A stretch of 64,000 nucleotides of DNA, from the sequence record NC_047770.1, one strand, 5' to 3'. Of the stretch, positions 1 through 52,532 are shown one piece after another. This stretch comes from Escherichia phage ESCO13. Numbering within the stretch: position 1 is the first letter of the stretch; each line of letters opens with the position of its first letter. The position numbers and the translations under genes were made by a program. Under the pieces are notes generated by a model that was not told the origin of the DNA, did not search any database, and saw only the letters and a program-made list of their open reading frames with translations.

Positions 1-85
1 CCGCTTTTGCTGCATAACGGCTTTCAATCTTTGCTGAATTAGCCAGTTTCTGCCGTTGTGTTTTAGCTGCGGTTTTATTTCCCAT
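1..85 (-). CDS. Hypothetical protein, 5' part only (gene continues past window start)
   Basis: ATG at 85-83 with AAGGAG SD 7 nt upstream; frame open to position 1 (MGNKTAAKTQRQKLANSAKIESRYAAKA...). Confidence 0.4.
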   Translation of the reverse strand, partial: MGNKTAAKTQRQKLANSAKIESRYAAKA

Positions 86-122
86 AGTAGCACTCCTTTT
101 AGAAGGGGCCGAAGCCCCTTTA

Positions 123-623
123 TTAGTTGTAAGCATCTAAAGTTCCAGAAGTCAGAACTTTAATTACTCGTTCAGCACGGTTTGGCGTCTGGCTATACCA
201 TCGGCTTTTACGCATGTTTTTACCTGCTTGAGTATAATATGCATTGCTGATTAAAGTCAAGCTATTTTGAAACCCTTCAGCACCTTTTAACCCCAACTGG
301 AAAACCATGTTGATTATTCCCAATTTACGAGTATCACTCACCTTATCATAGATTGGTGATAAGATAGCACTGTTTTTTATGTCTCTCTTCACTTTTGCAA
401 CATCGTCAGCAAAGATTTGACGGGCTTCTTTTTCTGTGATAACTCCATTAGTCTTACGACCAAGAAGATTATCTAAGATTTGAATAGCCTTTGCTTTATC
501 TTTTATTTTAGTCAGAAGGTGTCCTATGCCGACTGTCCAATAACCAAGATGATCTTGGTAAACAGTAAGCTTCAGTCCTTCATCGACTCGTAGCATATCA
601 AACTCATCTACTACTTTAGCCAT
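123..623 (-). CDS. Endolysin, T4 lysozyme (gpe)-like GH24 muramidase
   Basis: 166 aa; near-colinear match to remembered T4 lysozyme (MLRVDEGL..YQD..GYWTIGIGHLLTK ... INMVFQLG ... KSRWYSQTPNRAERVI..GT.DAY). Confidence 0.9.
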   Translation of the reverse strand: MAKVVDEFDMLRVDEGLKLTVYQDHLGYWTVGIGHLLTKIKDKAKAIQILDNLLGRKTNGVITEKEARQIFADDVAKVKRDIKNSAILSPIYDKVSDTRKLGIINMVFQLGLKGAEGFQNSLTLISNAYYTQAGKNMRKSRWYSQTPNRAERVIKVLTSGTLDAYN

Positions 624-630
624 TTACTTC

Positions 631-780
631 CTATTCGTCGTCTCCTACTCCGTGATCCAACTCATTAAACAACAGATGTTCTGGAGAAGTTTCACGTTTT
701 GGTTTCGTTTTCTTTATGTTGGACTTCAGCTCATTTGCCAAAGCACGAGAAAAGATCTTACGTTTCTGTTTACTTTTCAT
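631..780 (-). CDS. Small basic hypothetical protein (49 aa)
   Basis: ATG at 780, TAG at 633-631, GGAG SD upstream; fills gap between glutaredoxin and endolysin genes; below the ORF-track cutoff. Confidence 0.3.
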   Translation of the reverse strand: MKSKQKRKIFSRALANELKSNIKKTKPKRETSPEHLLFNELDHGVGDDE

Positions 781-785
781 AATTG

Positions 786-1046
786 TTACTCCGCAATTTG
801 AGCCATGAGATCACGCAGTTCGGTAAAACCGCCTACGTATGTTACCTCCCCGTTCACTTCAGACAGAATTTGTGGAAATGTGCGTGGAGGAACTCCGGTA
901 AGATCAACAACTGTTTTAGTCATTGATTCTAAATCATAGTCTTGGTCAAGACTTAAATATTCAAACTGTTTATTGCGCATAGTCAATAGTTGTTTTGACA
1001 TTTCACAAAATTGACAGTTAGGTTTACCAAAAATTACAAATTCCAT
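786..1046 (-). CDS. nrdC: Glutaredoxin/thioredoxin-like redoxin (T4 NrdC-like)
   Basis: 86 aa with CQFC active-site motif; architecture resembles T4 NrdC (C..C...LL...FE(F/Y)...PQ(V/I)...GGF..LR). Confidence 0.7.
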   Translation of the reverse strand: MEFVIFGKPNCQFCEMSKQLLTMRNKQFEYLSLDQDYDLESMTKTVVDLTGVPPRTFPQILSEVNGEVTYVGGFTELRDLMAQIAE

Positions 1047-1888
1047 TACCTCTCCTTATTAAGTAATACTGCTAAAGACTGTTCAATACCTTTATTTAAA
1101 TCTGATTTTGTAAGATAGTGACTGGTTACTAGTTGTGACTTCACCGGACGTGCTGCTGGAGCATTATAGGTTGAAGCTGATACCGCCGATATCTTAACAG
1201 GTTCTGGCATCTGTGTCAAGATCTTTTCCGCAAACTCCGCCCAAGAAATAAGATGGCTTCCTGCAAAATGGTAAGTCTTAACAGACCTTGACCAACCTGT
1301 TTTTAATACTTCAAAAATAGCTTCTGCTAAATCTGGAGCATATGTTGGACAAGAGAACTGATCAGCAACAATAATAAAATCACGTTGTCCATCATTATAG
1401 CGAGACAACATAGTTTTTAGAAAGTTATTTCCAAATTCGCTATATACCGAGGCTGTTCGAATAATATATGCATTTGGGTTAACTCCTCGCACCATTTTTT
1501 CACCAAGTTCTTTCGTATACCCATAATTGTTTATTGGGTTAGGTGTAGTGTCTTCAAAAATAGGATGAGAATAATTAAAAATATAGTCTGTGGAAATATG
1601 CACAAAATCAATTTTAAGTTTGCTGCACACTGCCGCAATATTTGCAGGGCCATAAGCATTAACAGCCAAAGCAGTAGCAAAATCTTGTTCGGCTTTATCT
1701 ACAGCCGTATAAGCGGCGCAATTAATAACACCATCTACATAATCTTCAACAATAGCGTTTCGCACAGCTTCAAAATTTGTAATATCTACACGTTCTTTAG
1801 GATAAATTAAAGATACATTTGCAGGGGCAACTTTACGTAAAGCTTGTCCCAGTTGTCCATTACCACCCAATACCAGATATGTTAGCAT
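1046..1888 (-). CDS. rmlD: dTDP-4-dehydrorhamnose reductase
   Basis: 280 aa; N-terminal GGNGQLG Rossmann motif, AAYTAVDKAE and STDY(I/V)F blocks typical of RmlD; last gene of an rml operon. Confidence 0.8.
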   Translation of the reverse strand: MLTYLVLGGNGQLGQALRKVAPANVSLIYPKERVDITNFEAVRNAIVEDYVDGVINCAAYTAVDKAEQDFATALAVNAYGPANIAAVCSKLKIDFVHISTDYIFNYSHPIFEDTTPNPINNYGYTKELGEKMVRGVNPNAYIIRTASVYSEFGNNFLKTMLSRYNDGQRDFIIVADQFSCPTYAPDLAEAIFEVLKTGWSRSVKTYHFAGSHLISWAEFAEKILTQMPEPVKISAVSASTYNAPAARPVKSQLVTSHYLTKSDLNKGIEQSLAVLLNKER

Positions 1889-2448
1889 ACACCCTCGCTA
1901 CGTAACTGTTGAAAAGATTTAGCCATTGCATCTTTTGTTGATAGGATAGGTTTAAAACCTTCATCAAAAATCATATCGAAGCCCCAATCGATCCCTATAT
2001 CAGGATCATCCCAACGTAAACTTTCTTCACTAGAAGGGTCGTATGGAGTTGTGCATTTGTATTCAAAGATAGCATCCATACTCAAAACTATAAAACCATG
2101 TGCCAAACCAGGTGGAAGCCAAAACTGCGTATGGTGTCGTGCACGAAGAACAACACCGTCCCAAGCACCGTAAGTAGGACTATCTTTACGTAAGTCTACA
2201 GCGAAATCCAATACTTCACCACTTACACAACGAACAAGCTTACCTTGCGGATTATTTGTTTGAAAGTGCATTCCTCGCAAAACACCGAAGTTTGATTTAG
2301 ACATGTTATCTTGAACGAAAGTTTGTCTACCAATGATATCTTCGTATTTTTGTTCATTATATGTTTCTAAAAAGAAACCACGGTCGTCTTTATAAACGTC
2401 TGGTTTGATAATTACCGCACCTTCAATTTTTGTTTTTTCTACTTTCAT
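1882..2448 (-). CDS. rmlC: dTDP-4-dehydrorhamnose 3,5-epimerase
   Basis: Cupin with DDRGFF..E, VQDN.S.S...VLRG.HFQ and QGKLVRC blocks as in E. coli RmlC; track ORF extends to 2568 but likely start is the ATG at 2448 overlapping rmlA stop (ATGA). Confidence 0.85.
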
Positions 2449-3323
2449 TTTCCCTCCGCTAATTTGAGTAGGTATTGCCCGTACTCTGTTTTCTTCAGTG
2501 AGTTTCCATGGTAGACCAAAGTCTCTAAAGAAATCCACCCTTTTTTGAAAGCAATTTCTTCCAGGCACGCAATCTTCAATCCTTGACAGTTCTCAATAGT
2601 CTGCACGAATTGACCAGCTTCCATCAGACTGGCGTGTGTTCCTGTGTCAAGCCAAGTAAATCCTCGTCCGAGAACTTCCACTTGTAACTTCCTGTCTTCG
2701 AGGTAGCTGCGATTGATATCAGTGATCTCCAGTTCTCCACGCGCGGAAGGGGTTACTTCTAATGCACGTTGAATAACAGAGTTATCATAGAAATACAAAC
2801 CTGTGACAGCATAATCTGATTTAGGATTTTCAGGTTTCTCTTCAATAGAAATAACTTGACGATTACTCCCAAATTCAACCACACCGAATCGTTCAGGATC
2901 TTTCACCAAACACCCGAAGATACAAGCTCCGCCCCAAACATCTACCATCTCACTAGCGTCAATCAGTAGTTTACCAAAGCTTTGTCCGAAGAATAGGTTG
3001 TCACCTAAAATAAGAGCAACAGAGTCTTCTCCGATAAAATCTTTACCGATGATGAAAGCGTCCGCAAGACCTCGTGGCTTGGATTGGATTGCGTAAGTGA
3101 GTTTTATCCCAAACATAGACCCATCTCCAAGAAGATACTCAAAGTCTTCCTGATCGCCTGGTGTGGTGATGATTAAGATATCCTTAATGTCAGCCAACAT
3201 CAATACCGATAAAGGGTAGTAGATCATGGGTTTGTCATACACAGGGAGCAATTGCTTGCTCACACTGCGTGTTACCGGATGAAGGCGGGTTCCACTTCCT
3301 CCCGCCAAAATAATACCTTTCAT
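2445..3323 (-). CDS. rmlA: Glucose-1-phosphate thymidylyltransferase
   Basis: 292 aa; [34 protein letters not shown] ... [11 protein letters not shown] ... [12 protein letters not shown] very close to enterobacterial RmlA. Confidence 0.95.
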
Positions 3324-3331
3324 AACCCTCC

Positions 3332-4324
3332 TTAAATCTTCTCACTCCACCATTGAGGGTTGTTTAAGTACCATTCAATCGTTGAGTAGAGATCTTGTTC
3401 AAATGTAGAGTTTGCACTCCAACCCAGTTCAGACTCTATTTTAGAAGGATTGATTTCATAACGCAAGTCATGTCCTTTACGATCTTCAACAAAAGTTATC
3501 AAGTTGGAAGAAGGGTAGGTTCCTGCTTCTGGATGTACAGCATCCATGTAGTCACAAACCATATAGATGATCTCCATATTGGTTTTGGGATTACGTGTTC
3601 CAACATTATACGTTTGACCTGGTTCTCCACCTGTTGCCACTTGAAGAATAGCTCGCGCATGATCCTCAACAAAAAGCCAGTCTCGCACCTGATCGCCTTT
3701 ACCATACACCGGAATCTCTTTATTCGTCAAGATACTTGTGATGATTTTTGGGATCAGCTTTTCTGGATGTTGATAAGGTCCAAAGTTATTGGAGCAGTTG
3801 GTTATCACAACAGGTAAACCGTAGGTACGGTACCAAGCTTTCACAAGATGGTCAGATGCTGCCTTAGACGCACTGTACGGGCTTGAAGGGGCATAAGCTG
3901 TCTCTTCGGTAAAGGGAACGCCAGAGTCTGCCATATCGCCGTACACTTCGTCTGTGGAGACATGTACGAACATCTTAAGTTTATTTTTTGGGAGGAGCCT
4001 TGCAGCTTCCAATAAATTGTATGTACCAATAATATTGGAGTCGATGAAAACTCGTGGATTCTTGATAGAATTATCCACATGACTCTCTGCCGCTAAGTGA
4101 ATGATGAAATCGGGATTGCACTCTACTACTAAACTTTTGACCTGGGTTTCGTTTGCCAAATCTGTTATGCTCAGTTTAACGTGAGTGATATCGCCTACAT
4201 TCTCAATATCTGCTGCATAGCCCATCTTATCAACGACAAAAACTTCGTTATTGGGATCTTGACAAAGAGAGCGCACCACGGCACTCCCAATAAAACCAAG
4301 ACCACCTGTTACCAGATAGCGCAT
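3332..4324 (-). CDS. rmlB: dTDP-glucose 4,6-dehydratase
   Basis: 330 aa; [68 protein letters not shown] blocks of RmlB. Confidence 0.95.
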
Positions 4325-4333
4325 CAGTTCTCC

Positions 4334-4660
4334 TTACCAGACATGTTGAGAAATAATAGTTTCCGTTTTAATGTTATATTTTTCAAGTAGCTTTGCATAG
4401 GCTTCTTTTGCATTCTCATTCAATTGCTCAAGATCTACAGCTATGCTTCCTTCTCCGCCTTCTAAATCAAGGCCATATATGCAATAAGACTCATCCGCAT
4501 CGTAGAAAGGAGAGATGCGGCTTAAGTCAAGACCTTCTTGTAAGAACCAGTTAAAATCTCCGTCAAATTCTTCTTCAATTCTAGGATCTTCTCCTACAGC
4601 CTCTTCCCACTTATTTAAAGGTGCACCCTGTAACATACGCCATTCGATATCAATACCCAT
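4334..4660 (-). CDS. Hypothetical acidic protein
   Basis: 108 aa ORF in operon context; start overlaps upstream small ORF stop (ATGGGTATTGA). Confidence 0.4.
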   Translation of the reverse strand: MGIDIEWRMLQGAPLNKWEEAVGEDPRIEEEFDGDFNWFLQEGLDLSRISPFYDADESYCIYGLDLEGGEGSIAVDLEQLNENAKEAYAKLLEKYNIKTETIISQHVW

Positions 4661-4814
4661 TTTTCATCTCCTCCTCTTCTTGAGCAGCTTTAATAATTGC
4701 TTCATAAATATCGTAAGCAATGCCTCCACAACATCTAGCTTCGAAAGCTATTGCTTCTGCAATGTGATCTGTTAATTCTCGTGGAATGCGAACATACTCT
4801 TTTTCACTCTCCAT
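4650..4814 (-). CDS. Small hypothetical protein (54 aa)
   Basis: ATG at 4814; stop TGA overlaps next gene start; compact operon packing; below ORF-track cutoff. Confidence 0.3.
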   Translation of the reverse strand: MESEKEYVRIPRELTDHIAEAIAFEARCCGGIAYDIYEAIIKAAQEEEEMKNGY

Positions 4815-4956
4815 CTTCTACCTCCAACCCTTCTTTTTCAAAGACTACTACTCGTCCCTCACCATGACAATTCAGGCAAGGAAATGTTACCATAATTTCC
4901 ACTTCCATCTGTCCCGTCCCACCGCACACAGGACAAAAAATAAGTTTTTCAGCCAC
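4804..4956 (-). CDS. Small zinc-ribbon protein (50 aa, GTG start)
   Basis: GTG at 4956 preceded by AAGGAGG SD; CPVCG...CLNCHG four-Cys ribbon; stop overlaps next start. Confidence 0.35.
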   Translation of the reverse strand: MAEKLIFCPVCGGTGQMEVEIMVTFPCLNCHGEGRVVVFEKEGLEVEDGE

Positions 4957-5165
4957 TATTCCTCCTTAATTATTTCAAATTTGGCAACACCATTTACAAT
5001 AATATGACCACAAGACATAACTCCTAGCCAAGGATCGCCGTTTTTCTTCAGGCGTTTACCGAATACATCACAAAAACCATTCTTCATTTCAGAGGCTTCA
5101 TAAGAAGCCCCTTTATCAAAAACGTCTTTGAATGTGTCGATTATACCAACACATTTCAAAATCAT
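4956..5165 (-). CDS. Hypothetical protein
   Basis: 69 aa ORF tightly packed between nrdB and small downstream ORFs. Confidence 0.35.
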   Translation of the reverse strand: MILKCVGIIDTFKDVFDKGASYEASEMKNGFCDVFGKRLKKNGDPWLGVMSCGHIIVNGVAKFEIIKEE

Positions 5166-6250
5166 TCGAAGTCAAGCTCCTCATCATCAGAGAGATCTTT
5201 GTTAGCTGAATTCAATTTGTAGTTAGTTAACTGAATCTCTTGGGCTGCTGACTGAATCAAATCAGGATTCAACCATTTTTCCATCCAAGCTAAAGGGCTA
5301 TGTTTAGGTGCTTTAAACTTGGCTTTCATTTTCAATCGACGATAAATAGGAGCAGCATTGAAATAAACCCACTGTTTAGACAATTCGGCGTTAAGACCTA
5401 CAATAAAACGACCTTCACTAAACAGGTAGTCACACCACTGTTCCTCTTGTTCAACAACAGTGTCGAGGATCAAAGTCAACTCTTCAATATTGTCTTCGTA
5501 AATTTTACGCCAAATTGGGTCATGCATCAATGCATCAATTACAGCATAATCCATCTTAACATGCAAGATTTCATCTAGCATAATTTTCTGGATCAGTTTA
5601 CAAGCCCCAACAAACAGTTGTTGTTCTGCCATAGCAAAAGTAGCAGAGAAGGAAGATATAAACTGAATACCTTCTAATCCAATCAGGGCTACCATCCCTT
5701 TAAGAATCAGCAGTCGAAGTTCATCGTTAGCTTCAATCAATCCTAGAGCATACTTATGACCAGCTTCTTCCAACTGACCCATGATATCAGCAATGATACC
5801 CATACGATTGAAAATTTTATCATTAATCATAATCTGATTGATGACTTCAATTGGATCTGGAGTACATTGACGGATTATTTCAGAATACGTTAACGCATGG
5901 AGAACTTCCATTTCACTCTGCTTCATCATCATAGCACAGGCTTCATTGTTACTCAAAAATGGAGAGAACAAAGTGATGATTGATTTTGCAAGAGAATCAT
6001 TTTCCCATTGGAACGATAAGTTTTTAATCATAACATCATAGTTGTTTTTAGAACAAGCTACGAAATCTTTACGTGTCTGATCCAGATTGACTTCATTCTC
6101 ATCCCAATCTTGTGCTTTTTGAAGTTTGTAGAGTTTGTGCATTTCTGGATAAGTTACGTTAACAGAATCAAAGATCCCTAATTGCTCCCCCAAAAATACT
6201 GGATATTTTCCTGTTTTGTAAACTTCATTGTGTAAATTAATTGCTGCCAT
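5162..6250 (-). CDS. nrdB: Ribonucleotide reductase class Ia small subunit (R2)
   Basis: 362 aa ferritin-like protein; E..H di-iron ligand blocks (EACAMMMKQSEMEVLHA; F.SSFSA.FA...DE.LH) and acidic C-terminal tail. Confidence 0.85.
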   Translation of the reverse strand: MAAINLHNEVYKTGKYPVFLGEQLGIFDSVNVTYPEMHKLYKLQKAQDWDENEVNLDQTRKDFVACSKNNYDVMIKNLSFQWENDSLAKSIITLFSPFLSNNEACAMMMKQSEMEVLHALTYSEIIRQCTPDPIEVINQIMINDKIFNRMGIIADIMGQLEEAGHKYALGLIEANDELRLLILKGMVALIGLEGIQFISSFSATFAMAEQQLFVGACKLIQKIMLDEILHVKMDYAVIDALMHDPIWRKIYEDNIEELTLILDTVVEQEEQWCDYLFSEGRFIVGLNAELSKQWVYFNAAPIYRRLKMKAKFKAPKHSPLAWMEKWLNPDLIQSAAQEIQLTNYKLNSANKDLSDDEELDFE

Positions 6251-6575
6251 TTAAGTCCTCCACTATATAACACATGCTTTTAAGTTCTGCAATATCTTCT
6301 TCGCTTGCTCCGTCTATCTTATAAACACCTTCTAGACCATCCCATACACTTTTAGTTAAGATTATTGTTATGTTATTTTCTGATCTTGCTCTACCTAATG
6401 CAAAAGCCGTTGCACTAGGATCATCAGAAGCCCATATTTGTATATCCCTAAGTTGGTAGGCAGCAATATAATTGCAACACCAATGTAAAGTAAAATCTTT
6501 GGAATCTACCAAGATAACGGTTCCATCACGTTTATGGATAGGTGATGCGCCTGGTAACACTATTAATGTTTCCAT
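6237..6575 (-). CDS. Hypothetical protein between nrdA and nrdB
   Basis: 112 aa ORF, ATG at 6575 with AAGGAG SD; no family recognised. Confidence 0.4.
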   Translation of the reverse strand: METLIVLPGASPIHKRDGTVILVDSKDFTLHWCCNYIAAYQLRDIQIWASDDPSATAFALGRARSENNITIILTKSVWDGLEGVYKIDGASEEDIAELKSMCYIVEDLNGSN

Positions 6576-6616
6576 ATTTTCTCCTTAGAAAATAAAGGGG
6601 CCGAAGCCCCTTGATA

Positions 6617-8863
6617 TCACATAGAGCAGCCTTCACAACCAGATTCTTTTAAGTTATCTTCTTGTGCTAAAGAGTCTGCTGATTTTGTTCTACTGTTAAG
6701 GTAATACAATGACTTGCCACCCAGTCTAGCAAAATTCAGAATAAACTGCATCTCAGCTTTCACTGATAAACGTCCACCTACCAATTTAGAATAATCTAGC
6801 CAAGAATCACAAGAAATTCCTTGGTCCGTAAACTTGGTAAAGATACCATACATTTCTGCAAGATCTTTAGCCGGAGTGTCCCAGGCAGACTGGTAGAACA
6901 TTTTCAGTTTTTCATAATCTGGAACAATAAATAATACGCTACCTTTCTGACTTTGTTTATACATAATAGTATCACGAACAGGGTACAGAGAGTTAGTAGT
7001 ATTGCTTACCAAACTGCTGGACTCATTAGGTGCAATAGCAGCCAAGACACTGTTACGGATACCACCTTGTTCAATGATTTCAGCACGTAAGCCTTCCCAG
7101 TCCATTTTAAGATCAAAATTACCGATACTATCTACTGTTTTAGCATAAGTGTCAATTGGTAGCCAACCTTGAGGCCATTTGGTCTTATCGATCCATTCTG
7201 CATTACCTTTTTCCTTAGCCAGACGCAGAGAGGCTTTTGCCAACCAAAAGTAATGACGTTCTGCAAGTTCATGCATTAATTTTTTAGCATAAGCATCTGA
7301 ATAATTTACAAAATTACTTGCCAAATAATGCGCTAAGTTTGTAATACCTACACCAATAGATCTACGTGCTTTAGCAGTTATTTCGTTATGTTTAAATGGA
7401 TAATCCATTGTTTCAATAACGTTGTCAATTGTCAATACAGTGTAGTATGCAACATCCTCATATTCTTCAGGTAAGACACGACCAGCGACAATAGAAGATA
7501 AGAAGCATAAAGCCAATTCTTGATCTTCTGTATTCTCACCAGTAAAGAGATCCGGCATATTGTGGAAAGCTTTAGTTGGTAAGAAGATCTCTTGACACAG
7601 GTTTGATTGATACACCGTATCCAGGAAAGGTGTATGGTTGTTAACGTTGTCAGCAAAGAACATGTAAATACGTCCTGTTTCTGCACGTTGAACAATAATC
7701 TCTGTCAGAAGATCACGAGCCTTAACAAATTTTTTCTTAATGCGACGACGGCTTACTTTGTCATAAACTGCATCAAACTCTTCTTCACTTTTATACAAGG
7801 CTTCATAAAGTTCAGGAGCATCATCACAACTAACTAACATCCAGTCTTCGTTTTTTGCTGCTCGACGCAAGAACGAACGGTTAACAACAATAGAATAATC
7901 TAGTTTGTCTACTCGTTTATCTATAGGTGTTGTTGGATTCTTCAGTCGAATCAGATCGTCGAAGTCTGGTTCAAGTATGGTAAAGGTAACTGTAGCACTA
8001 CCTCCACGGCTTGCTTGCTTCGAAGCTCCAACACTATCTTCCATCCATTTCAGATATGGAAGAAGACCACCATGAATAATACGATTATTCTTAACACCTT
8101 GACCTGTGGCACGAGTTTGAAGATTAACACCAATACCTGCGTTATTCAACGTATACTCATGAGCTAAGTAATTAGCAATGGCTAAAGACTCTGCCGTATC
8201 GTCTGCACGGAACAAACAACAAGACGCACTTCCTTTGATTGGAGTTCGTAGAGTTGTCAGATATGGCGATGGCAGATTAATCTTAAGATCGCTGACATAA
8301 GTATAAAGTTTTTTAATATCTTCTATACGGCGTTCTTTTGGTTGGATCTCCATAACCTTCATTGCGATACCAATGAAAAGGAACTGTGGAGACTCATGCA
8401 CCACATCGTTTACTGCATCTCGAATAAGATATTTATCCACCATTTGACGTAAAACAGAATAACCATAAGTTAGATTTTTATTATGCTTTACAATCTTACC
8501 GATTTCTTTGATCTCTTCATCAGTATAATCCATTTTAGCCCAATGACCACGTTCTACCATATCATGATAAAAGGTATTCAGTGAAGGGATACTGTGGTAT
8601 CCCCCATGAGCCTGTTTGTAAATCATACCCAGAAGAAGTCTTCCTGCCATATCACTGTAAGCTTGTGTTTTCTTGTCAATACACGCTGCAATCATTGCTT
8701 TATGCAGATCACGTGTAGACACACCGTCATAACACCGCTTCACAGCTTCTAATTCAATTTCAGACCAGTTTAGTTTACCTGCTGCAAATTCAGACCACTT
8801 GCGAAGTTTTTCTGGATTAAACTCCTCTGTCTTACCGTTAGATTTAGTTACAAAACGAATCAA
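6617..8863 (-). CDS. nrdA: Ribonucleotide reductase class Ia large subunit (R1)
   Basis: 748 aa; N-terminal ATP-cone-like segment (V.KSNGK.E.F...KL), catalytic-Cys blocks, C-terminal CEGCS redox tail. Confidence 0.9.
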   Translation of the reverse strand: MIRFVTKSNGKTEEFNPEKLRKWSEFAAGKLNWSEIELEAVKRCYDGVSTRDLHKAMIAACIDKKTQAYSDMAGRLLLGMIYKQAHGGYHSIPSLNTFYHDMVERGHWAKMDYTDEEIKEIGKIVKHNKNLTYGYSVLRQMVDKYLIRDAVNDVVHESPQFLFIGIAMKVMEIQPKERRIEDIKKLYTYVSDLKINLPSPYLTTLRTPIKGSASCCLFRADDTAESLAIANYLAHEYTLNNAGIGVNLQTRATGQGVKNNRIIHGGLLPYLKWMEDSVGASKQASRGGSATVTFTILEPDFDDLIRLKNPTTPIDKRVDKLDYSIVVNRSFLRRAAKNEDWMLVSCDDAPELYEALYKSEEEFDAVYDKVSRRRIKKKFVKARDLLTEIIVQRAETGRIYMFFADNVNNHTPFLDTVYQSNLCQEIFLPTKAFHNMPDLFTGENTEDQELALCFLSSIVAGRVLPEEYEDVAYYTVLTIDNVIETMDYPFKHNEITAKARRSIGVGITNLAHYLASNFVNYSDAYAKKLMHELAERHYFWLAKASLRLAKEKGNAEWIDKTKWPQGWLPIDTYAKTVDSIGNFDLKMDWEGLRAEIIEQGGIRNSVLAAIAPNESSSLVSNTTNSLYPVRDTIMYKQSQKGSVLFIVPDYEKLKMFYQSAWDTPAKDLAEMYGIFTKFTDQGISCDSWLDYSKLVGGRLSVKAEMQFILNFARLGGKSLYYLNSRTKSADSLAQEDNLKESGCEGCSM

Positions 8864-9639: not shown

Positions 9640-10638
9640 TCACCATTTAGTATGATTTGTTAAAAGTTGACGATGTTGAATCCAGCCTTTGAAATTGCCA
9701 GACCAAAACTTACCATTACGATCTACATGGGTAATACCTGGTTCCCAAGAGTTAAAATCCCAAGGAGCATTGATAAACAAATCTTCAAAACAGTTCTCTC
9801 CATATTGTTCGCATGTTTCTTGCATTGGAGTGGCTTGATGTTCAAACGGAGAAGCATGAACCTTGCGCCCAGTCAGCAAGCGACCATAGATATCTAAAGC
9901 TTTATCTTTAGTTGCATTTAAACGACGATAGCTAACCTGTGCACAACACGAAGCTGAAATAGCTTTGGCTTCTTCCAAAGTAAGCACAACGACTTCTCCA
10001 GATTCATTTTGAACGTAGTATCCACCAAAAACAAAATGATCGTCACCTTCTGTGCCAATAGTATCATAGAAATGGTCTACATAAGGTGTGTGCCATTGCC
10101 CTGGTTTCAGCACTTCTGGTGTAGATCCTTCATACTCTTTGTGCATCTCTTTAGCCAAAGCTTCGATAGTAGGATCGGCTTCTTTGTCATCACGTAGCCA
10201 CCAGAAATTTTCATATTCTGTTGCTGTCAGAACTGTTTTAATTCGTTGGAAAGGTTCCAGAAGACGGTTTGCAACTTGTTTGTGGTACCCTGCCAAAGAA
10301 AATTCTTCTGCAAAACGTGCTGCACTAAGCGCGGCAAGATCCCACCACTCTTGAGCAGTATAACCTGCATCAATAAGAGCGTCATGATCAACACCTTTAT
10401 CCTGCATACCAGGTTGGTTAGCCCCAAAACGATAAGGACGAGCAGGTTGATTTCGCACCATTTCAATCAGTGTTTTAACAGGTATAGCACGGCTAGAAGC
10501 AGCATTACGACTGAACAGGCGGTGAGTCATCAATTCTGAATGAATAATACGTGGATATTCTAGTTCAAAAGTTACAATCTCTTTTCCGTCTTCAGTGATG
10601 GAATGCGCAATAATACTAGCCGAAATCTGTTTTGTCAT
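9640..10638 (-). CDS. thyX: FAD-dependent thymidylate synthase (ThyX-like)
   Basis: 332 aa; ThyX-type signature HRLFSRNAASSR (xHRxxSxxxxSxR); sits with nrdAB and other nucleotide-metabolism genes. Confidence 0.6.
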   Translation of the reverse strand: MTKQISASIIAHSITEDGKEIVTFELEYPRIIHSELMTHRLFSRNAASSRAIPVKTLIEMVRNQPARPYRFGANQPGMQDKGVDHDALIDAGYTAQEWWDLAALSAARFAEEFSLAGYHKQVANRLLEPFQRIKTVLTATEYENFWWLRDDKEADPTIEALAKEMHKEYEGSTPEVLKPGQWHTPYVDHFYDTIGTEGDDHFVFGGYYVQNESGEVVVLTLEEAKAISASCCAQVSYRRLNATKDKALDIYGRLLTGRKVHASPFEHQATPMQETCEQYGENCFEDLFINAPWDFNSWEPGITHVDRNGKFWSGNFKGWIQHRQLLTNHTKW

Positions 10639-10647
10639 TTTTTCTCC

Positions 10648-11256
10648 TTAGTTTTTAAAATTGTTCAAAGTGTTAAAAACATCCAAACATGTTAGCCACT
10701 GATCTTCTAAACCTGTGATCACAACATTTGGTTTTTTCTTTAGTTCTTCTAGATGGTTATCTTTATAAGGCGTATTAAAATATATTTTAACCACTTCATC
10801 TGGAAAATATAGTAGGTTATCAGCCCTGTCATCTATTGCTATATCACAAGGCAATAAGTATTTTTCTTTCGTAGCAAAAAAGCCGTTGCCAGATCCTTTG
10901 CTAAAATCAATCGTATCTAATGTTCTTAAAACATGCTTATGTTTAGAACTTAAGTGACCACCTTTTGTCACACTCGCGATCAAAAGATTGCTACCTTTCC
11001 TTGAAACATACTTTAAGAAATCTGGCATACCTGGAACAAAACCCATTGTATCGTAGAGATGAGGATTATCCAGAAATCCGTAAGGATCTATGTTGAACTC
11101 TTCCCTGAAACCAGGAAAATAGTTGGTAAGATCATAATCTGCATTTTTTGTGAATGTGTCGATTTTAACACCAAGGCCACTAATCTTATTCAACCATTCT
11201 AACCAAGCAACATCTAACGGAGCCACAACTAAATCCCAATCACATACTATCTGCAT
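10648..11256 (-). CDS. HAD-superfamily hydrolase, possible 5'(3')-deoxyribonucleotidase
   Basis: 202 aa; N-terminal DWDLV (DxDx[TV]) and later DDRADN motifs; family assignment tentative. Confidence 0.35.
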   Translation of the reverse strand: MQIVCDWDLVVAPLDVAWLEWLNKISGLGVKIDTFTKNADYDLTNYFPGFREEFNIDPYGFLDNPHLYDTMGFVPGMPDFLKYVSRKGSNLLIASVTKGGHLSSKHKHVLRTLDTIDFSKGSGNGFFATKEKYLLPCDIAIDDRADNLLYFPDEVVKIYFNTPYKDNHLEELKKKPNVVITGLEDQWLTCLDVFNTLNNFKN

Positions 11257-26580: not shown

Positions 26581-26853
26581 ACACAACATTAAGAGCACTG
26601 TGATTGATCGTCGTATCCTGTGCACAAGGTCTGCTCGAAAGACAGTGTTCTTAGTATTGTGTTGATCACAAAAAGAGTCACCCGAAACTTGACCGGAGTA
26701 GGGTTGGATGGGGCAAAATGAGAAGCGGCTCTCCCATCGACAGCAACGAAGAATAATATTTGACTTTGGTTTTGTATTATTTTAAGTTAGCTTACCGAAC
26801 GTAGGGCTAGTCACCCAACGGGATACTCGTCACTGTCCCAATCAATAAAAGTC

Positions 26854-26883
26854 TTGACAACAAATAGTAAAATGTAGTATAGT
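26854..26883 (+). promoter_or_regulatory. Candidate internal promoter (TTGACA-18-TATAGT)
   Basis: TTGACAACAAA box then TATAGT, 12 nt before tRNA-Gly. Confidence 0.4.
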
Positions 26884-26894
26884 AAATATATATG

Positions 26895-26968
26895 GCGTTC
26901 TTGGTGTAGCGGTAGCATTCCGTCCTTCCAAGTCGGCGGCACGAGTTCGATCCTCGTAGAACGCTCCA
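26895..26968 (+). tRNA. tRNA-Gly (anticodon TCC)
   Basis: Acceptor GCGTTCT/AGAACGC, anticodon loop CTTCCAA, T-loop TTCGATC, encoded CCA. Confidence 0.75.
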
Positions 26969-27066
26969 AATTATTTAATAAAGGGTTGCCAGAAAACTTT
27001 CTCTTTTACTCATGGTTTTCTCCTTCTCTCACACTTCTTCTGGTTGCCCTTCATTAAATGATTTAT

Positions 27067-27142
27067 TGGTTTGTAGTGTAGTCCGGTAGCACACGACACT
27101 TTGACTGTCGTAGGTTTGGTTCAAATCCAGACAGACCAGCCA
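27067..27142 (+). tRNA. tRNA-Gln (anticodon TTG)
   Basis: Anticodon arm CGACA-CTTTGAC-TGTCG; T-loop TTCAAAT; encoded CCA. Confidence 0.8.
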
Positions 27143-27235
27143 TATAACAAAGGTGAGTCACTACCTTAAGTGTGAAGTTAAAAACGAGGAGCCGCCGAAC
27201 ACTTTCTTTTGCGGTGTACCTTTAGAATGTTATCA

Positions 27236-27312
27236 CGGGACGTAGCACAGCTTGGTAGTGCGCTCGCTTTGGGAGCGAGAGGTCGAGTGTTCGAATCACT
27301 CCGTCCCGACCA
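27236..27312 (+). tRNA. tRNA-Pro (anticodon TGG)
   Basis: Anticodon arm CTCGC-TTTGGGA-GCGAG; T-loop TTCGAAT; encoded CCA. Confidence 0.85.
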
Positions 27313-27318
27313 ATTAAA

Positions 27319-27392
27319 TGTTTCGTAGTTCAATGGTAGAACCCACGACTGATAATCGTGAGACACAAGTTCGATTCTTGTCGAAACAACCA
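27319..27392 (+). tRNA. tRNA-Ile (anticodon GAT)
   Basis: D-arm GTTC-AATGGTA-GAAC, anticodon arm CACGA-CTGATAA-TCGTG, encoded CCA. Confidence 0.85.
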
Positions 27393-27394
27393 GT

Positions 27395-27464
27395 TTCCCG
27401 TTAGACTTACAGGATAAGAGTTCCACAGCTTATTGTGATGCTGGTTCGAATCCAGCACGGGATA
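27395..27464 (+). ncRNA. tRNA-like element with truncated anticodon arm
   Basis: Acceptor with 1-72 T.T mismatch, normal D- and T-arms, but only 16 nt where anticodon arm plus variable loop need about 21; no encoded CCA. Confidence 0.4.
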
Positions 27465-27470
27465 CATAAT

Positions 27471-27549
27471 AGCGGGATAGAGGAGTCTGGTCGTCCTCGC
27501 CAGTTTCATATGCTGGAGATCATCGGTTCAAATCCGATTCCCGCCTCCA
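27471..27549 (+). tRNA. tRNA with anticodon CAT, initiator-like features
   Basis: Anticodon loop TTCATAT; A1.C72 mismatch at acceptor end and A11:U24 pair; T-arm ATCGG-TTCAAAT-CCGAT resembles E. coli tRNA-fMet; encoded CCA. Confidence 0.7.
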
Positions 27550-36011: not shown

Positions 36012-36356
36012 ATGTCAAACCCAGAATTGAAACGTTACTTTAGTTATCACGAAATGATTCGTGATTTCGAATCGCTTTCACCACTGATTGATGCTGATAA
36101 AACATTAGTATCTGCGCCACCAATGTCTTTCTATCTGAAAGATGGTCGTATTGCATTAGGTGGAAACTTCATTCACTTCCTCACGCGTTTGAGAGAAGAA
36201 ACAGGTATTCTTGTGCATCCTTTTGCAAGTGAAGAACACATGGGTTACTATCTTGTAAGTTACGAAGACTATGCACCTGTAAAAATCAAAGAAGAAGTTT
36301 TAAAAGTAGAAGCGGTAGACACTCCAGCTAAAAAACGTTCCCTTCGTAAAAAATAA
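36012..36356 (+). CDS. Hypothetical head/neck protein
   Basis: Track ORF from 35958; ATG at 36012 with GAGGAG SD lies beyond the terminator. Confidence 0.4.
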   Translation: MSNPELKRYFSYHEMIRDFESLSPLIDADKTLVSAPPMSFYLKDGRIALGGNFIHFLTRLREETGILVHPFASEEHMGYYLVSYEDYAPVKIKEEVLKVEAVDTPAKKRSLRKK

Positions 36357-36365
36357 GGTGGGCTT

Positions 36366-36914
36366 ATGCTGAATGCGGTAGAGTTGGCACCACTGATCCG
36401 AATTCTTGTTTATAACCCTTCTCAAGAAGTATTGCCAGATGCAATGCTGATTCAGATCGTCCAAACTTGGATTGATATTATAGGGAATGAAGATAAGGAT
36501 AAGTGTGCAGTATTGTGGAACAGCTTGATTTCTGTTTTAGAGTATTTATGGAACAACGATGTTCTTAATAACAATACTCAAACAGGAGGAGCTATGTCCC
36601 GCAGAGAAAAGATGGGTGAAGTCGAAGTTGAAGTTAAATTTAACAACGGTCAAGTAACTTATAAGTCTCCGTGGGAAGATATCTATCATAACTATTTAAA
36701 TGGTCTTATGGTGATCCCTGGGTGCACGGCAGGACGAGGAGCAACCAGTAAAGTTCTTATTGGTGGTGTTGATGCTCGTGAGATTGATCGAGTAAACAGT
36801 GATCCTAACTCTGTAAATGGTCTTGGTAATGTTGCAAGTGTTGATCGTAATACACGCAACGTTAATTATTTGCGAAATTACGGACCTGTTTCTTTTTATC
36901 GTAGGGACAAATAA
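36366..36914 (+). CDS. Putative head-tail connector/completion protein
   Basis: 182 aa; position between capsid and tail genes. Confidence 0.35.
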   Translation: MLNAVELAPLIRILVYNPSQEVLPDAMLIQIVQTWIDIIGNEDKDKCAVLWNSLISVLEYLWNNDVLNNNTQTGGAMSRREKMGEVEVEVKFNNGQVTYKSPWEDIYHNYLNGLMVIPGCTAGRGATSKVLIGGVDAREIDRVNSDPNSVNGLGNVASVDRNTRNVNYLRNYGPVSFYRRDK

Positions 36915-50215: not shown

Positions 50216-52279
50216 ATGAAACAAGCTATATTTACTGTCACGCGAGACAAGAGAGTAAATGCGAGTTCATTTAACTACACGACTGTTGACGGAACAGCAG
50301 TCGCTGGTAGAGATTATATAGCAAAATCGGGAACACTTGTGTTCCCTGATGATGCTGATTCTGCTACCATTGTGGTTGAAGTATTTGAACGACCAAAGAA
50401 CTCAATAGATCTTAACTTCTCCCTCCAAGTTTCAGGGATTAGTCAAAATAACATGATGGTTGAAACGACCATCAATTGTATTATAACTACTATCCAAGAA
50501 AACACTACTCCAATAACTTGGACTACAAAAGACGTTAAAATGTTCTCTCCTATGTATTGGACAATAGACTCTCAAGCAACGGAAAGTTGTTCTATTGTAT
50601 CTCATGGAGACTCTTTTACTGCAAGATTTGTAAACAGAACAGCAGCAGGTTTGGCAGGGGTTATCTGGAGCACAGTTGACAAATATGATCACAAAGGTGT
50701 TGGGTATTTACCCCACACAGATTTAAGTTCAGAGAAACTTTGGTTTAAAATGGAAATTAGTCAAAACATGCCAGGTTTTAAAGAAGAACCTTTGGTGCCG
50801 ACTTTGACTGTAACTCTCCTGGATAAAAGTGTTCATTATGTCAGTTTAGGATTCTACGCTTCAGATATTTCAGAAGATGGTAAAACAGCCACAATCAAGT
50901 TAGATTTTGGTAATATCTTTTCTGGCCCTAATAATGATATTCCTTTGGATATGAGTGCTGTAGATAATATTTTCTTCTCTTTGATTACAGCAAGGTATGA
51001 AGAAATAGAAGAGATTGTACCTATTGCCAGTCAAGAGGCTTGGTTTACTTTCACTCTTCTTGAACCTACTTCTGGTTACAGTATGATGAAAGTCAGCAAC
51101 CTTGTCCAGCCTGAACATGATATTCGCATGTGCACATCTTATGATGATATGTATAACCTGACTCCAGAGAGAGTTATTTATAATACGTATGCACTAGGTT
51201 ATCGTGGAATGATTAACCATTACAACGGAATGTCTCACTATTATGAGTTCTCATGGAACGGAACATCTTGGGCTTTAAATAGATCTGTTTTCCTGAATCC
51301 GGCTACAGAAGCTTGGCTTAACAGTTTCCATTCTATAGCTAATGAAAATGGCTACACAATAATGAACTCTTTGAGTTTTGAGTTGATGAGCACAGTTTGT
51401 CCTGTAGAATGGGTTCAACATGATTGGAACGATGCTCTTGCAGCAACAGGTTATGAGCCGCCTAGTTATGTGTTATCTCCAACAATTGATGAAGGTATGG
51501 AATATTTGCAAAATGTTATTAACAAAATAGCATCTATTTCTCAAGCTAACAATATTCCAGTCGTCATTCAAATTGGTGAACCTTGGTGGTGGTATAATAC
51601 AGCAAGTAAAATGCCTTGTATATATGATTACACTACCAAACTAGCATTCAATACAGAAACAGGCTTATTTGCACAAGATGCAGGAACAATAGATAATTAT
51701 AAAACAGGAACACCGTTTGACGAATACTATGCATTTTTGTCTCGTAAACTAGGATTAAGAGTTACAAAGTTTGCAACAGACACTAGAGCAACTTATCCAG
51801 GAGCTAAAGTAACATTGCTTCCGTTCTTACCGTCAATTATTGGCAACGGTTTGATGGAGAAAGTTAACTTTCCGTCTGATTACTACATTCCTGAAGCTTT
51901 TGATTTTTACTGTTCAGAGTGTTACGACTGGCTTCTGGAAGGTAAAATGATGAAAGCATTTGATGCAATTACCATACCACATGAAAAATTAGGTTTTGAA
52001 TATTCTGATATTCACTATCTTTCAGGTTTTGTTCCAGATGCTACTCTTGCACCTTTGTATGGCTTCGATCCTGAATCAAACTACCGCACGTATCTTTGGA
52101 AAATGATTATAGGTAATATAGTGTTGAACGCCAATAAGTTCAATGGACTTACACAATATATATGGGCCTATCCTCAAATAATGCACGATTCCATCACGGT
52201 AGTTAATTCTCAATCCCAAGTTTTCTATATGGGTAACGTGCCTTTGAACGTTTATTTACAGGATACAGTATATGCCTAA
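50216..52279 (+). CDS. Large tail-associated protein (unknown; possible receptor-binding/enzymatic)
   Basis: 687 aa ORF in baseplate/fibre region. Confidence 0.35.
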   Translation: MKQAIFTVTRDKRVNASSFNYTTVDGTAVAGRDYIAKSGTLVFPDDADSATIVVEVFERPKNSIDLNFSLQVSGISQNNMMVETTINCIITTIQENTTPITWTTKDVKMFSPMYWTIDSQATESCSIVSHGDSFTARFVNRTAAGLAGVIWSTVDKYDHKGVGYLPHTDLSSEKLWFKMEISQNMPGFKEEPLVPTLTVTLLDKSVHYVSLGFYASDISEDGKTATIKLDFGNIFSGPNNDIPLDMSAVDNIFFSLITARYEEIEEIVPIASQEAWFTFTLLEPTSGYSMMKVSNLVQPEHDIRMCTSYDDMYNLTPERVIYNTYALGYRGMINHYNGMSHYYEFSWNGTSWALNRSVFLNPATEAWLNSFHSIANENGYTIMNSLSFELMSTVCPVEWVQHDWNDALAATGYEPPSYVLSPTIDEGMEYLQNVINKIASISQANNIPVVIQIGEPWWWYNTASKMPCIYDYTTKLAFNTETGLFAQDAGTIDNYKTGTPFDEYYAFLSRKLGLRVTKFATDTRATYPGAKVTLLPFLPSIIGNGLMEKVNFPSDYYIPEAFDFYCSECYDWLLEGKMMKAFDAITIPHEKLGFEYSDIHYLSGFVPDATLAPLYGFDPESNYRTYLWKMIIGNIVLNANKFNGLTQYIWAYPQIMHDSITVVNSQSQVFYMGNVPLNVYLQDTVYA

Positions 52280-52532
52280 AGAAAGTGGTTTTAAAAAATT
52301 TATTCGCGGAATGTTCTGCACTTACCCTGGCAACGGGGTAAGCTCTACAAAAGTCTGGAACGCTGTAGGCATGTCTGTTATGACAGGCATGTTTATCTTT
52401 TTAGGAATAGAAAAAGAAATTCCTGAATGGATGGGTTGGGCTTTTGTTTTCATGATAACTCCTTCTCGCCTCATGAAAAATCTTATTGATTTACGCTGGG
52501 GCAGATCACAATCTACCAAAGAGGATGACTAA
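52272..52532 (+). CDS. Small protein with hydrophobic segments
   Basis: 86 aa; two hydrophobic stretches; overlaps neighbours. Confidence 0.35.
   Translation: MPKESGFKKFIRGMFCTYPGNGVSSTKVWNAVGMSVMTGMFIFLGIEKEIPEWMGWAFVFMITPSRLMKNLIDLRWGRSQSTKEDD

Follow-up and report, generated by a model that had tools for sequence, protein, structure and literature searches.

What does a lytic coliphage do with an activated sugar of its own making? The question arises in Escherichia phage ESCO13 (sequence record NC_047770.1), from which we analysed a stretch of 64,000 nucleotides, referred to throughout as the window. Near its left end four contiguous genes, rmlB, rmlA, rmlC and rmlD, encode, as read from their sequences, a complete and intact pathway to deoxythymidine diphosphate (dTDP)-L-rhamnose, with enzyme assignments that are secure. 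Our best explanation of the whole, which we regard as probable, is that this complete pathway is old, that its core is rmlC-rmlD, that its product goes to glycosyltransferases (GTs) of the phage's own, and that the virion is the likeliest acceptor.

An earlier note on this DNA, made without database searches, had recognised a complete RmlB, RmlA, RmlC and RmlD set at positions 1046–4324, and the homology searches it called for bore this out: searches with hidden Markov models (HMMs) recovered all four Rml families, in four intact, full-length genes (Table 1). All four proteins exceed the cut-offs of their NCBIfam equivalog models over the full length: RmlB scores 429.8 bits (cut-off 365.1) across model positions 1–319 of 321, RmlA 459.5 bits (360.65) with residues 2–289 on model positions 1–285 of 286, RmlC 224.3 bits (155.75) and RmlD 238.0 bits (224.05), the last a narrow, marginal pass; Pfam concurs. 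The expected motifs are intact in each, namely GGLGFIG (GxxGxxG), TDEVYG (T-D-E) and YSASK (YxxxK) in RmlB, the nucleotide-binding loop GGSGTRL at residue 8 of RmlA, RGMH, YKC and WDDP in RmlC, and GGNGQLG (GxxGxxG), STDY and YGYTK (YxxxK) in RmlD. The top PDB sequence matches of RmlD are all RmlD proteins, the best solved relatives being those of Bacillus anthracis (3sc6) and Clostridium acetobutylicum (1vl0), at E about 1e-44. For rmlC, a 228-aa open reading frame (ORF) opening with GTG was discarded as an over-extension into rmlA, and the ATG start giving 188 aa was taken instead. Starting from glucose-1-phosphate and dTTP, the successive action of RmlA, RmlB, RmlC and RmlD would yield dTDP-L-rhamnose.

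That the window is phage rather than bacterial DNA, as the earlier note had also held, is confirmed by its lytic-phage context and by its 99% identity to Phapecoctavirus genomes. Over positions 1–6000, identity is 99.3–99.4% with Dompiswa phage TSP7_1 and with Escherichia phage ESCO5, and 98.3% with phAPEC8, while the whole window aligns with ESCO5 in four collinear blocks at 96.9–99.0% identity that cover ~63 of its 64 kb. Nucleotide identity and synteny with phAPEC8 and ESCO5 place it in the genus Phapecoctavirus; ESCO5 is classified in this genus of the Stephanstirmvirinae, which holds the phAPEC8-like myophages of E. coli. Among 5,426 complete E. coli genomes no place covers at least 80% of the rml cluster, and the best DNA identity to it is 60–70% at a coverage of at most 45%. 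It follows that the window comes neither from a chromosome nor from an E. coli prophage.

Two accounts of how the genes came to be there can be compared directly. The earlier note took RmlA, RmlB and RmlC to be very close to enterobacterial enzymes and proposed recent capture from a host; in its strongest form, this would be passive capture from an enterobacterial rfb locus, leaving the genes as cargo without a dedicated phage function. The similarity on which that proposal was built is not found. Relative to E. coli K-12, RmlB is 50% identical to both RfbB and RffG, RmlA 62% to RfbA and 63% to RffH, and RmlC and RmlD reach 50% and 31%, against a yardstick of 67% between the E. coli paralogs RfbA and RffH and 74% between RfbB and RffG. 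Against the enterobacteria-specific NCBIfam models all scores fall far short (PRK10084, 400 bits where 649 are needed; PRK10217, 392 against 698; PRK15480, 408 against 588; PRK09987, 119 against 308). In a search of one genome per species across 100,044 species, the best bacterial RmlA relatives are only 59–66% identical and are scattered over Gammaproteobacteria (E. albertii, 64%), Bacteroidota, Bacillota, Campylobacterota and others, and RmlD is closer to the B. anthracis and Clostridium structures than to the Salmonella one (E about 1e-44 versus 2e-29). No close donor appears among these species or among the 5,426 E. coli genomes. Justusliebigvirus PHB05, of the sister genus, carries the genes in the identical order B-A-C-D-glutaredoxin-lysozyme, at amino-acid identities to the window of 64% (RmlB), 71% (RmlA), 62% (RmlC) and 55% (RmlD); between the two, synonymous sites are saturated and the nonsynonymous rate (pN) lies far below the synonymous rate (pS), as expected under purifying selection. 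The phiWec-type phages have the entire cluster at about 80% DNA identity, so that order and position are kept across three genera under strong purifying selection, and rmlC-rmlD is never lost. Recent capture can claim for itself that rmlB-rmlA behave as a mobile presence/absence cassette within Phapecoctavirus, and that their GC content at third codon positions (GC3), 0.40–0.41, is the highest of the neighbourhood, where rmlC and rmlD lie at 0.23–0.27 and the median over the 27 minus-strand genes checked is 0.29. Against the identities of merely 31–63% to E. coli, the missing donor and the conserved order, we regard it as effectively refuted. Since the gene order is shared with the divergent Justusliebigvirus cluster and no close bacterial donor exists among the genomes searched, sequence comparison instead shows that the rml cluster is old, vertically inherited, ancestral to the Stephanstirmvirinae and kept by selection. 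The GC3 anomaly was itself rejected as a mark of recent capture, because it is absent in Justusliebigvirus (about 0.2 in all four rml genes of PHB05) and no donor was found; it may instead reflect a replacement of the rmlB-rmlA cassette in the window's lineage, for which likewise no donor was found.

The cluster is not inherited as a single block. By megablast, rmlC-rmlD is at least 95% identical in 69 phage records, whereas rmlB-rmlA is at least 90% identical in only 41; roughly 40% of Phapecoctavirus records lack rmlB-rmlA, and rmlC-rmlD is always kept. The rmlD-rmlC part alone was matched in ESCO37, Mt1B1_P17, anhysbys, ZCKP1, ETEC-TG, WPEC2, iGC_PHA_EC001 and ABPW7, and of the four genes the more distant KP2025 and FKP3, phages of Klebsiella, likewise possess rmlC and rmlD alone. 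In ESCO37 the 108-aa ORF that lies directly upstream of rmlB in the window is followed directly by rmlC, the junction falling inside the two Shine-Dalgarno GGAG sequences. The host side offers a rationale for this asymmetry. The phage rmlA/rmlB region is matched by 5,423 of the 5,426 complete E. coli genomes, the E. coli genes among the matches listed being rfbA/rfbB or, at the locus for enterobacterial common antigen (ECA), rffH/rffG, whereas a homolog of rfbD covering at least 80% of the K-12 gene is present in only 2,365 of 5,426 (44%). Every E. coli host would thus make dTDP-4-keto-6-deoxyglucose through RffH and RffG for ECA. A broad-host-range phage would then need RmlC and RmlD, because its hosts all supply the 4-keto intermediate and only about 44% have rfbD: these would be the steps that it must bring, and RmlA and RmlB would be dispensable boosters of flux. 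We hold with considerable confidence that rmlC-rmlD is the conserved core and rmlB-rmlA such a booster.

A sugar donor calls for transferases. The earlier note saw no GT in the window; searching it with GTs of the family by tblastn and HMM indeed finds none, nor is any annotated in the span of ESCO5 that matches the window. As a statement about the genome this is incomplete, for four GTs lie beyond the window in all close relatives. ESCO5 has four adjacent annotated GTs (gp211–gp214) at 107.4–110.5 kb, ~10 kb past the window's right end, adjoining primase/helicase, Dam-like methyltransferase and DNA polymerase genes. The proteins gp213 and gp214 are paralogs, 41% identical, with weak GT-B matches in Pfam and membership of PHROG 7162; gp212 is a 227-aa GT-A protein with an FDDDCYP (DDD) motif; and gp211, of 187 aa, is called a glycosyltransferase by PHROG only. 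Across gp211–gp214 there is no convincing transmembrane segment (maximum 19-residue Kyte-Doolittle value at most 1.65, with the peak in a Rossmann-core strand). The cluster is at least 95% identical in 63 Phapecoctavirus records and recurs in phiWec, Justusliebigvirus and Klebsiella relatives with DNA identities of 66–75%; homologs of gp212 and gp213 also occur in Citrobacter phage Tr1, at 35% and 71% protein identity. The cluster is carried by the same set of phage taxa as the rml genes. The dTDP-L-rhamnose made by the rml enzymes would feed these four soluble GTs, and we think it probable that it does.

PDB sequence searches with gp212 and gp214 returned only noise, and structure prediction followed by Foldseek was therefore used. 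The AlphaFold model of the gp213 family (predicted local distance difference test, pLDDT, 94.6) has a GT-B fold of GT4-like type, closest to sucrose-phosphate synthase, BshA, MshA, PglA and TarM and also near the protein O-glycosyltransferases SdgB and Gtf3/GtfC. The model of gp212 (pLDDT 87) is a minimal GT-A whose best match is the viral GT-A A197 of the archaeal virus STIV, followed by collagen hydroxylysine GTs, a polypeptide GalNAc-transferase and TarP/TarS, with the rhamnosyltransferase RmlT at rank 48. The alpha- and beta-glucosyltransferases of T4 are absent from the top 50 fold matches of both models. By tblastn, gp212 is related to GTs in about 350 Mycobacterium phages, and comparison of its family with the N-terminal GT-A domain of Ramsey gp106 gave an hhalign probability of 99.3% (E 1e-20); Ramsey gp106 adjoins an ortholog of Che8 gp110 within the cluster-F glycosyltransferase locus.

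Relatives of the cassette elsewhere show the company it keeps. The apparently bacterial homologs of gp213 (40–51% identity) are prophage genes, and viral contigs as well as temperate prophages of Serratia, Enterobacter and Pseudomonas carry a gp211/212/213-like cassette that is 35–51% identical. Serratia sp. M24T3 and Enterobacter huaxiensis both have gp211-like, gp212-like and gp213-like genes in that order, followed by HNH, small and large terminase and a protease-capsid fusion, the block lying downstream of lysis genes or the antiterminator Q; the Enterobacter copy includes an extra epimerase/dehydratase of the short-chain dehydrogenase/reductase type, a sugar-nucleotide enzyme, within the cassette. 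In Pseudomonas silvicola and several metagenomic contigs a gp212-like/gp213-like pair stands just before the terminase, and in a Pseudomonas alliivorans prophage a three-gene cassette directly follows the major capsid gene and precedes the connector and tail genes. In 7/7 distinct phage contexts sampled, close homologs of the cassette thus occupy late operons, with terminase or capsid genes as neighbours. Chromosomal homologs of gp213, 42–45% identical, occur in Burkholderia dolosa (L095, 7205–8440) and Trinickia symbiotica (L096, 8001–9026) beside an invasin/intimin-type adhesin gene, with the GT directly downstream of this inverse autotransporter gene and a conserved 555–571-aa protein. The site may be an adhesin-glycosylation locus, its layout recalling that of adhesin-specific protein glycosyltransferases.

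Further afield, at least 482 stretches in IMG/VR encode this family. We examined the neighbours within three genes at 34 non-redundant loci outside Stephanstirmvirinae-like contigs, most of them distant (about 30–35% identical). By Pfam, these neighbours include six hexapeptide acyltransferases, five large terminases, four methyltransferases and four portals, besides GT2, GT_PLOD, a formyltransferase, two DNA methylases, one clear TAGT (1e-15, downstream of the GT-B at one locus) and one borderline Tet_JBP. The counts are mixed, ranging from enzymes that tailor glycans through terminase and portal to a few genes of DNA metabolism, and do not settle the acceptor, and some branches of the GT-B family may belong to DNA-hypermodification clusters. 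At the locus with the borderline match (L158, IMG/VR contig 3300042868_001092), the Tet_JBP-like dioxygenase lies at 4441–5232 and scores 34.8 bits against a cut-off of 34.9; the GT-B, 32% identical, follows three genes downstream at 6001–6960, and the 384-aa ORF after it could, from its length and the Pfam counts above, encode a large terminase.

What, then, would be rhamnosylated? Among the acceptors weighed, the phage's own virion proteins, made late in the cytoplasm, are the likeliest by analogy, a choice that we make tentatively and with less than even confidence. They are preferred because the cassettes stand in late operons, because no hydroxymethyl-base route is found there, because homologs lie beside adhesin genes and because mycobacteriophages provide a precedent; virion proteins would be glycosylated late, akin to the capsid and tail-tube glycosylation of those phages. 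A broader version, in which a portable cassette of two or three gp211/212/213-like GTs, common to Stephanstirmvirinae and many temperate phages of Proteobacteria, glycosylates their own virions while the coliphages add rhamnose whatever the serotype of the host, is possible but doubtful. Several observations weigh against this whole line of argument. The link between rml and the GTs is one of co-occurrence only, the two clusters being about 75 kb apart in ESCO5, and since the prophage GT cassettes come without rml, specificity for rhamnose is not intrinsic to the GTs. The enzymes matched by fold are generic GT-A and GT4 ones, which leaves the acceptor unfixed, and neither BLAST nor hhalign finds a credible relationship, beyond noise, between gp211–gp214 and Che8 gp108–110. 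The head and tail proteins in the window have no conspicuous Ser/Thr-rich tail; in a Ser/Thr scan of window proteins nothing stood out apart from repeats in tail fibres and the disordered C-terminus of the portal. Because RmlD barely passes its equivalog cut-off, the product could even be 6-deoxy-L-talose, as made by Tll-type homologs, rather than L-rhamnose. Finally, in the Stephanstirmvirinae both clusters lie among nucleotide and replication genes, as do the DNA glucosyltransferases of T4, gp212 has weak matches to DNA-GT families (Pfam TAGT, 1.3e-3; the PHROG of the T2/T6 beta-glucosyl-HMC-alpha-glucosyltransferase, 5e-6), and the distant loci include the TAGT and borderline Tet_JBP genes described above.

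These last observations are also what favours glycosylation of DNA, the hypothesis of Olsen et al. 2020, in which rhamnose, alone or within an oligosaccharide, would be placed on modified bases as a shield against restriction or other defences. The modules that house rml and the GTs include nrdAB, thyX, primase/helicase, DNA polymerase and Dam (PMC7552041), and the thymidylate-synthase-like protein of the window is a very divergent ThyX. That protein is of ThyX type and not ThyA type, however, matching Thy1/ThyX only and weakly, and the route to a hydroxymethylated base that characterises T4-type systems was not found: neither a dCMP/dUMP hydroxymethylase nor a TET/JBP protein is annotated in ESCO5 (an annotation that is not an exhaustive HMM scan of every ORF), and the hypothetical minus-strand proteins of at least 100 aa contain no GT or DNA-modification domains. 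The small temperate phages that carry close relatives of the cassette show no hydroxymethyl-base pathway in 12–21 kb of context, which favours the virion, and the T4 enzymes are missing from the top fold matches. In the BASEL study, moreover, phi92-like phages and their relatives are 'exceptionally susceptible' to restriction-modification despite the machinery (PMC8594841). We therefore consider DNA an improbable acceptor. Remodelling of the host envelope is somewhat less improbable, though still unlikely. Here the lipopolysaccharide (LPS) core, O-antigen or ECA would be changed in the infected cell, with chemically plausible variants in which lipid-linked intermediates are rhamnosylated or dTDP-4-keto-6-deoxyglucose is drained from the synthesis of dTDP-Fuc4NAc for ECA; the outcome would be masked receptors, blocked superinfection or fewer progeny lost on debris. 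By pathway knowledge RmlC/RmlD take the same intermediate as WecE does for ECA, these phages use LPS-core sugars as terminal receptor and have many glycan-binding fibres (PMC8594841), the fold neighbours include the lipid- and polymer-glycan enzymes PglA, TarM, TarP, TarS and RmlT, and in E. coli a dysregulated RmlA is by itself enough to disturb cell division and the synthesis of O-antigen (PMC12773781). Against this, a short lytic cycle leaves new glycans little time to reach the outer membrane, and no Gtr-type membrane proteins or flippases stand beside the GTs. Genes for lysogenic conversion usually lie near the integrase or att site, whereas the lambdoid prophage cassettes are in the Q-dependent late region by the terminase; Gtr-type serotype conversion is a poor fit for soluble gp211–gp214, a lytic phage and prophage homologs in the late region. 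What probability remains falls to an acceptor other than virion proteins, envelope and DNA.

Known systems place the preferred reading, glycosylation of the virion, in context. Bacterial rfb/rml operons (E. coli rfbBDAC; rffG/rffH) share the four enzyme families, the chemistry and the catalytic motifs. The phage order B-A-C-D differs from the B-D-A-C of E. coli, as the earlier note had remarked and as comparison with K-12 confirms; identity is 31–63%, the scores stay below the enterobacterial subfamily cut-offs, and instead of lying in an O-antigen cluster alongside Wzx, Wzy and glycosyltransferases, the phage genes are embedded in a unit for nucleotide metabolism. The working analogy is with mycobacteriophages, in which virion glycosylation involves Che8 gp108–110 and occurs also in Corndog and Myrna (Freeman et al. 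2023, as summarised in PMC12363180 and PMC11256854); the Che8 locus, counterpart of that of Ramsey, glycosylates capsid and tail tube, and gp110 is described there as essential for capsid glycosylation (PMC12363180). Clustered soluble phage GTs are common to both, with the gp212 family homologous to the GT-A domain of Ramsey gp106, and they differ in that homology to Che8 gp108–110 is not detectable and that mycobacteriophages use host sugar nucleotides, whereas an ESCO13-type phage brings its own dTDP-rhamnose pathway. With the T-even phages ESCO13 shares a lytic myophage lifestyle and sugar-handling genes among early nucleotide and replication genes, and the arabinosyl-hmC of RB69 demonstrates that phages can bring unusual sugar chemistry of their own (PMC6024577); it differs in that no hydroxymethyl-pyrimidine pathway is found, in that its relatives are highly restriction-sensitive (PMC8594841) and in that its GTs resemble GT4 and minimal GT-A enzymes rather than T4 alpha- or beta-glucosyltransferase. 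Further removed, giant viruses (Mimivirus with UDP-L-rhamnose, and chloroviruses) possess sugar-nucleotide pathways that decorate capsids or fibrils. They are alike in having an activated-rhamnose pathway and GTs of their own and virion glycosylation independent of the host, and unlike in being eukaryotic viruses with a UDP-rhamnose route and unrelated enzymes.

The layout of the locus is compact (Table 1). The rml genes are separated by junctions of 8–9 nt or overlap: the rmlC ATG overlaps the rmlA stop (ATGA), and rmlD shares 7 nt with rmlC and 1 nt with the glutaredoxin gene. Each rml start is preceded by a Shine-Dalgarno sequence, AAGGAG in the case of rmlB. The flanks are those named in the earlier note, which had placed the genes between NrdC/endolysin and nrdAB, glutaredoxin and lysozyme being downstream and nrdB and nrdA upstream. 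The rml genes belong to a co-directional block of orf112, nrdB, five small ORFs between nrdB and rmlB, rmlBACD, glutaredoxin, orf49 and lysozyme, and a scan found no terminator-like site between nrdB and the lysozyme gene. The 108-aa ORF on the left flank of the rmlB-rmlA cassette, kept in ESCO5, ESCO37 and PHB05, has no match in Pfam or NCBIfam. A hairpin 16-mer, AGGGGC-UUCG-GCCCCU, occurs in exactly two copies in the 64 kb, where none is expected by chance; from their positions, the two hairpins are likely the upstream and downstream boundaries of an nrdB-rml-glutaredoxin-lysozyme unit, the one at nrdA being a likely terminator.

Table 1. Features of the rml locus and its surroundings in the window
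Feature	Position	Strand	Basis or remark
Hairpin, second copy of that after nrdA	104..119	-	without T-run; just after lysozyme stop
Phage lysozyme, last gene of the unit	123..623	-	PF00959 6.6e-11
Glutaredoxin (NrdC-like), overlaps rmlD	786..1046	-	PF00462 1.8e-9; GRX NCBIfam scores sub-threshold
rmlD, dTDP-4-dehydrorhamnose reductase, 280 aa	1046..1888	-	TIGR01214; PF04321 1.2e-73
rmlC, dTDP-4-dehydrorhamnose 3,5-epimerase, 188 aa from ATG	1882..2448	-	TIGR01221; PF00908 1.4e-66
rmlA, glucose-1-phosphate thymidylyltransferase, 292 aa	2445..3323	-	TIGR01207
rmlB-rmlA presence/absence cassette	2449..4324	-	present in window, precisely absent in ESCO37-type Phapecoctavirus
rmlB, dTDP-glucose 4,6-dehydratase, 330 aa	3332..4324	-	TIGR01181
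108-aa ORF directly upstream of rmlB, left flank of rmlB-rmlA cassette	4334..4660	-	
nrdB, class Ia ribonucleotide reductase beta subunit	5162..6250	-	ORF and annotation of 99% identical ESCO5
Hairpin, UUCG tetraloop, GC-rich, then T-run; after nrdA	6596..6611	-	likely terminator
nrdA, class Ia ribonucleotide reductase alpha subunit	6617..8863	-	ORF and ESCO5 annotation
10 tRNA genes (Met x2, Arg, Ser, Asn, Thr, Gly, Gln, Pro, Ile)	25537-27549	+	at minus-to-plus gene-strand switch

Some further observations concern the surroundings and the relatives of the window. A 332-aa 'thymidylate synthase' at 9640–10638 on the minus strand is a very divergent ThyX-like protein, matching Pfam Thy1 with only 33 bits over half its length and no PDB sequence; its neighbour at 10648–11256, on the same strand, is an NT5C-like deoxynucleotidase gene. 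Compared with ESCO5, the window lacks an HNH homing-endonuclease gene between nrdA and nrdB (ESCO5 36064–36723), a second such gene (53002–53607) and one tail-protein gene (83032–85797); the differences fall at window positions 6302–6656, 22943–22975 and 52265–52287, and the rest is 97–99% collinear. By its position, the missing tail-protein gene is apparently the endo-N-acetylneuraminidase gene, which occurs only in ESCO5 and REC (PMC10269720). Among GenBank records with other host names, identity to Phapecoctavirus is 97–99% for Campylobacter phage B15, Acinetobacter phage ABPW7 and also Klebsiella phage ZCKP1; for Campylobacter phages A145, A110a and C3 the match is 65–74%, the same level as for Justusliebigvirus genomes, and Pseudomonas phage PsgM04F has a gp212 that is 81% identical. 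The host labels of these oddly assigned records (MG065650, MG065645, MG065689, MG065656, OP562383, MH252123, OR584014) look doubtful, unless the host range is unusually broad.

The pathway itself is already known, and the novelty implied by the earlier note was overstated. The rml genes of phAPEC8-like/phi92-like coliphages are annotated in dozens of GenBank records and discussed in print, the rmlBACD of those records being the same locus with the same flanks in genomes (phAPEC8, ESCO5, TSP7_1) to which the window is 98–99% identical. Olsen et al. 2020 called the position of rml within a DNA-metabolism region 'peculiar' and suggested DNA glycosylation (PMC7552041), Maffei et al. 2021 mentioned a 'putative dTDP glycosylation machinery' (PMC8594841), and a 2023 paper recorded ESCO37 as lacking rmlA and rmlB (PMC10269720). 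Published accounts go as far as a complete pathway and perhaps DNA glycosylation, with the rmlB-rmlA polymorphism reported for ESCO37 only. In the literature searched we found no study of what phage rml or GT genes do, no description of a widespread rmlB-rmlA cassette or of a connection between the rml locus and the GT cassette with its relatives in prophages, and no phage of Gram-negative bacteria for which a glycosylated virion is reported. What is new here, as leads rather than results, is the rmlC-rmlD core with its rmlB-rmlA presence/absence cassette, the co-occurring GT cluster, and the relatives of that cluster in prophage late operons.

These leads make more testable the question of what use a lytic coliphage has for activated rhamnose of its own. 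If the cassette does build a virion glycan, phages of Gram-negative bacteria would have their first described case of a glycosylated virion. In mycobacteriophages a glycan coat on the virion reduces antibody recognition. Glycosylated virions would matter for phage therapy, as Phapecoctavirus and Justusliebigvirus are common in therapeutic cocktails.

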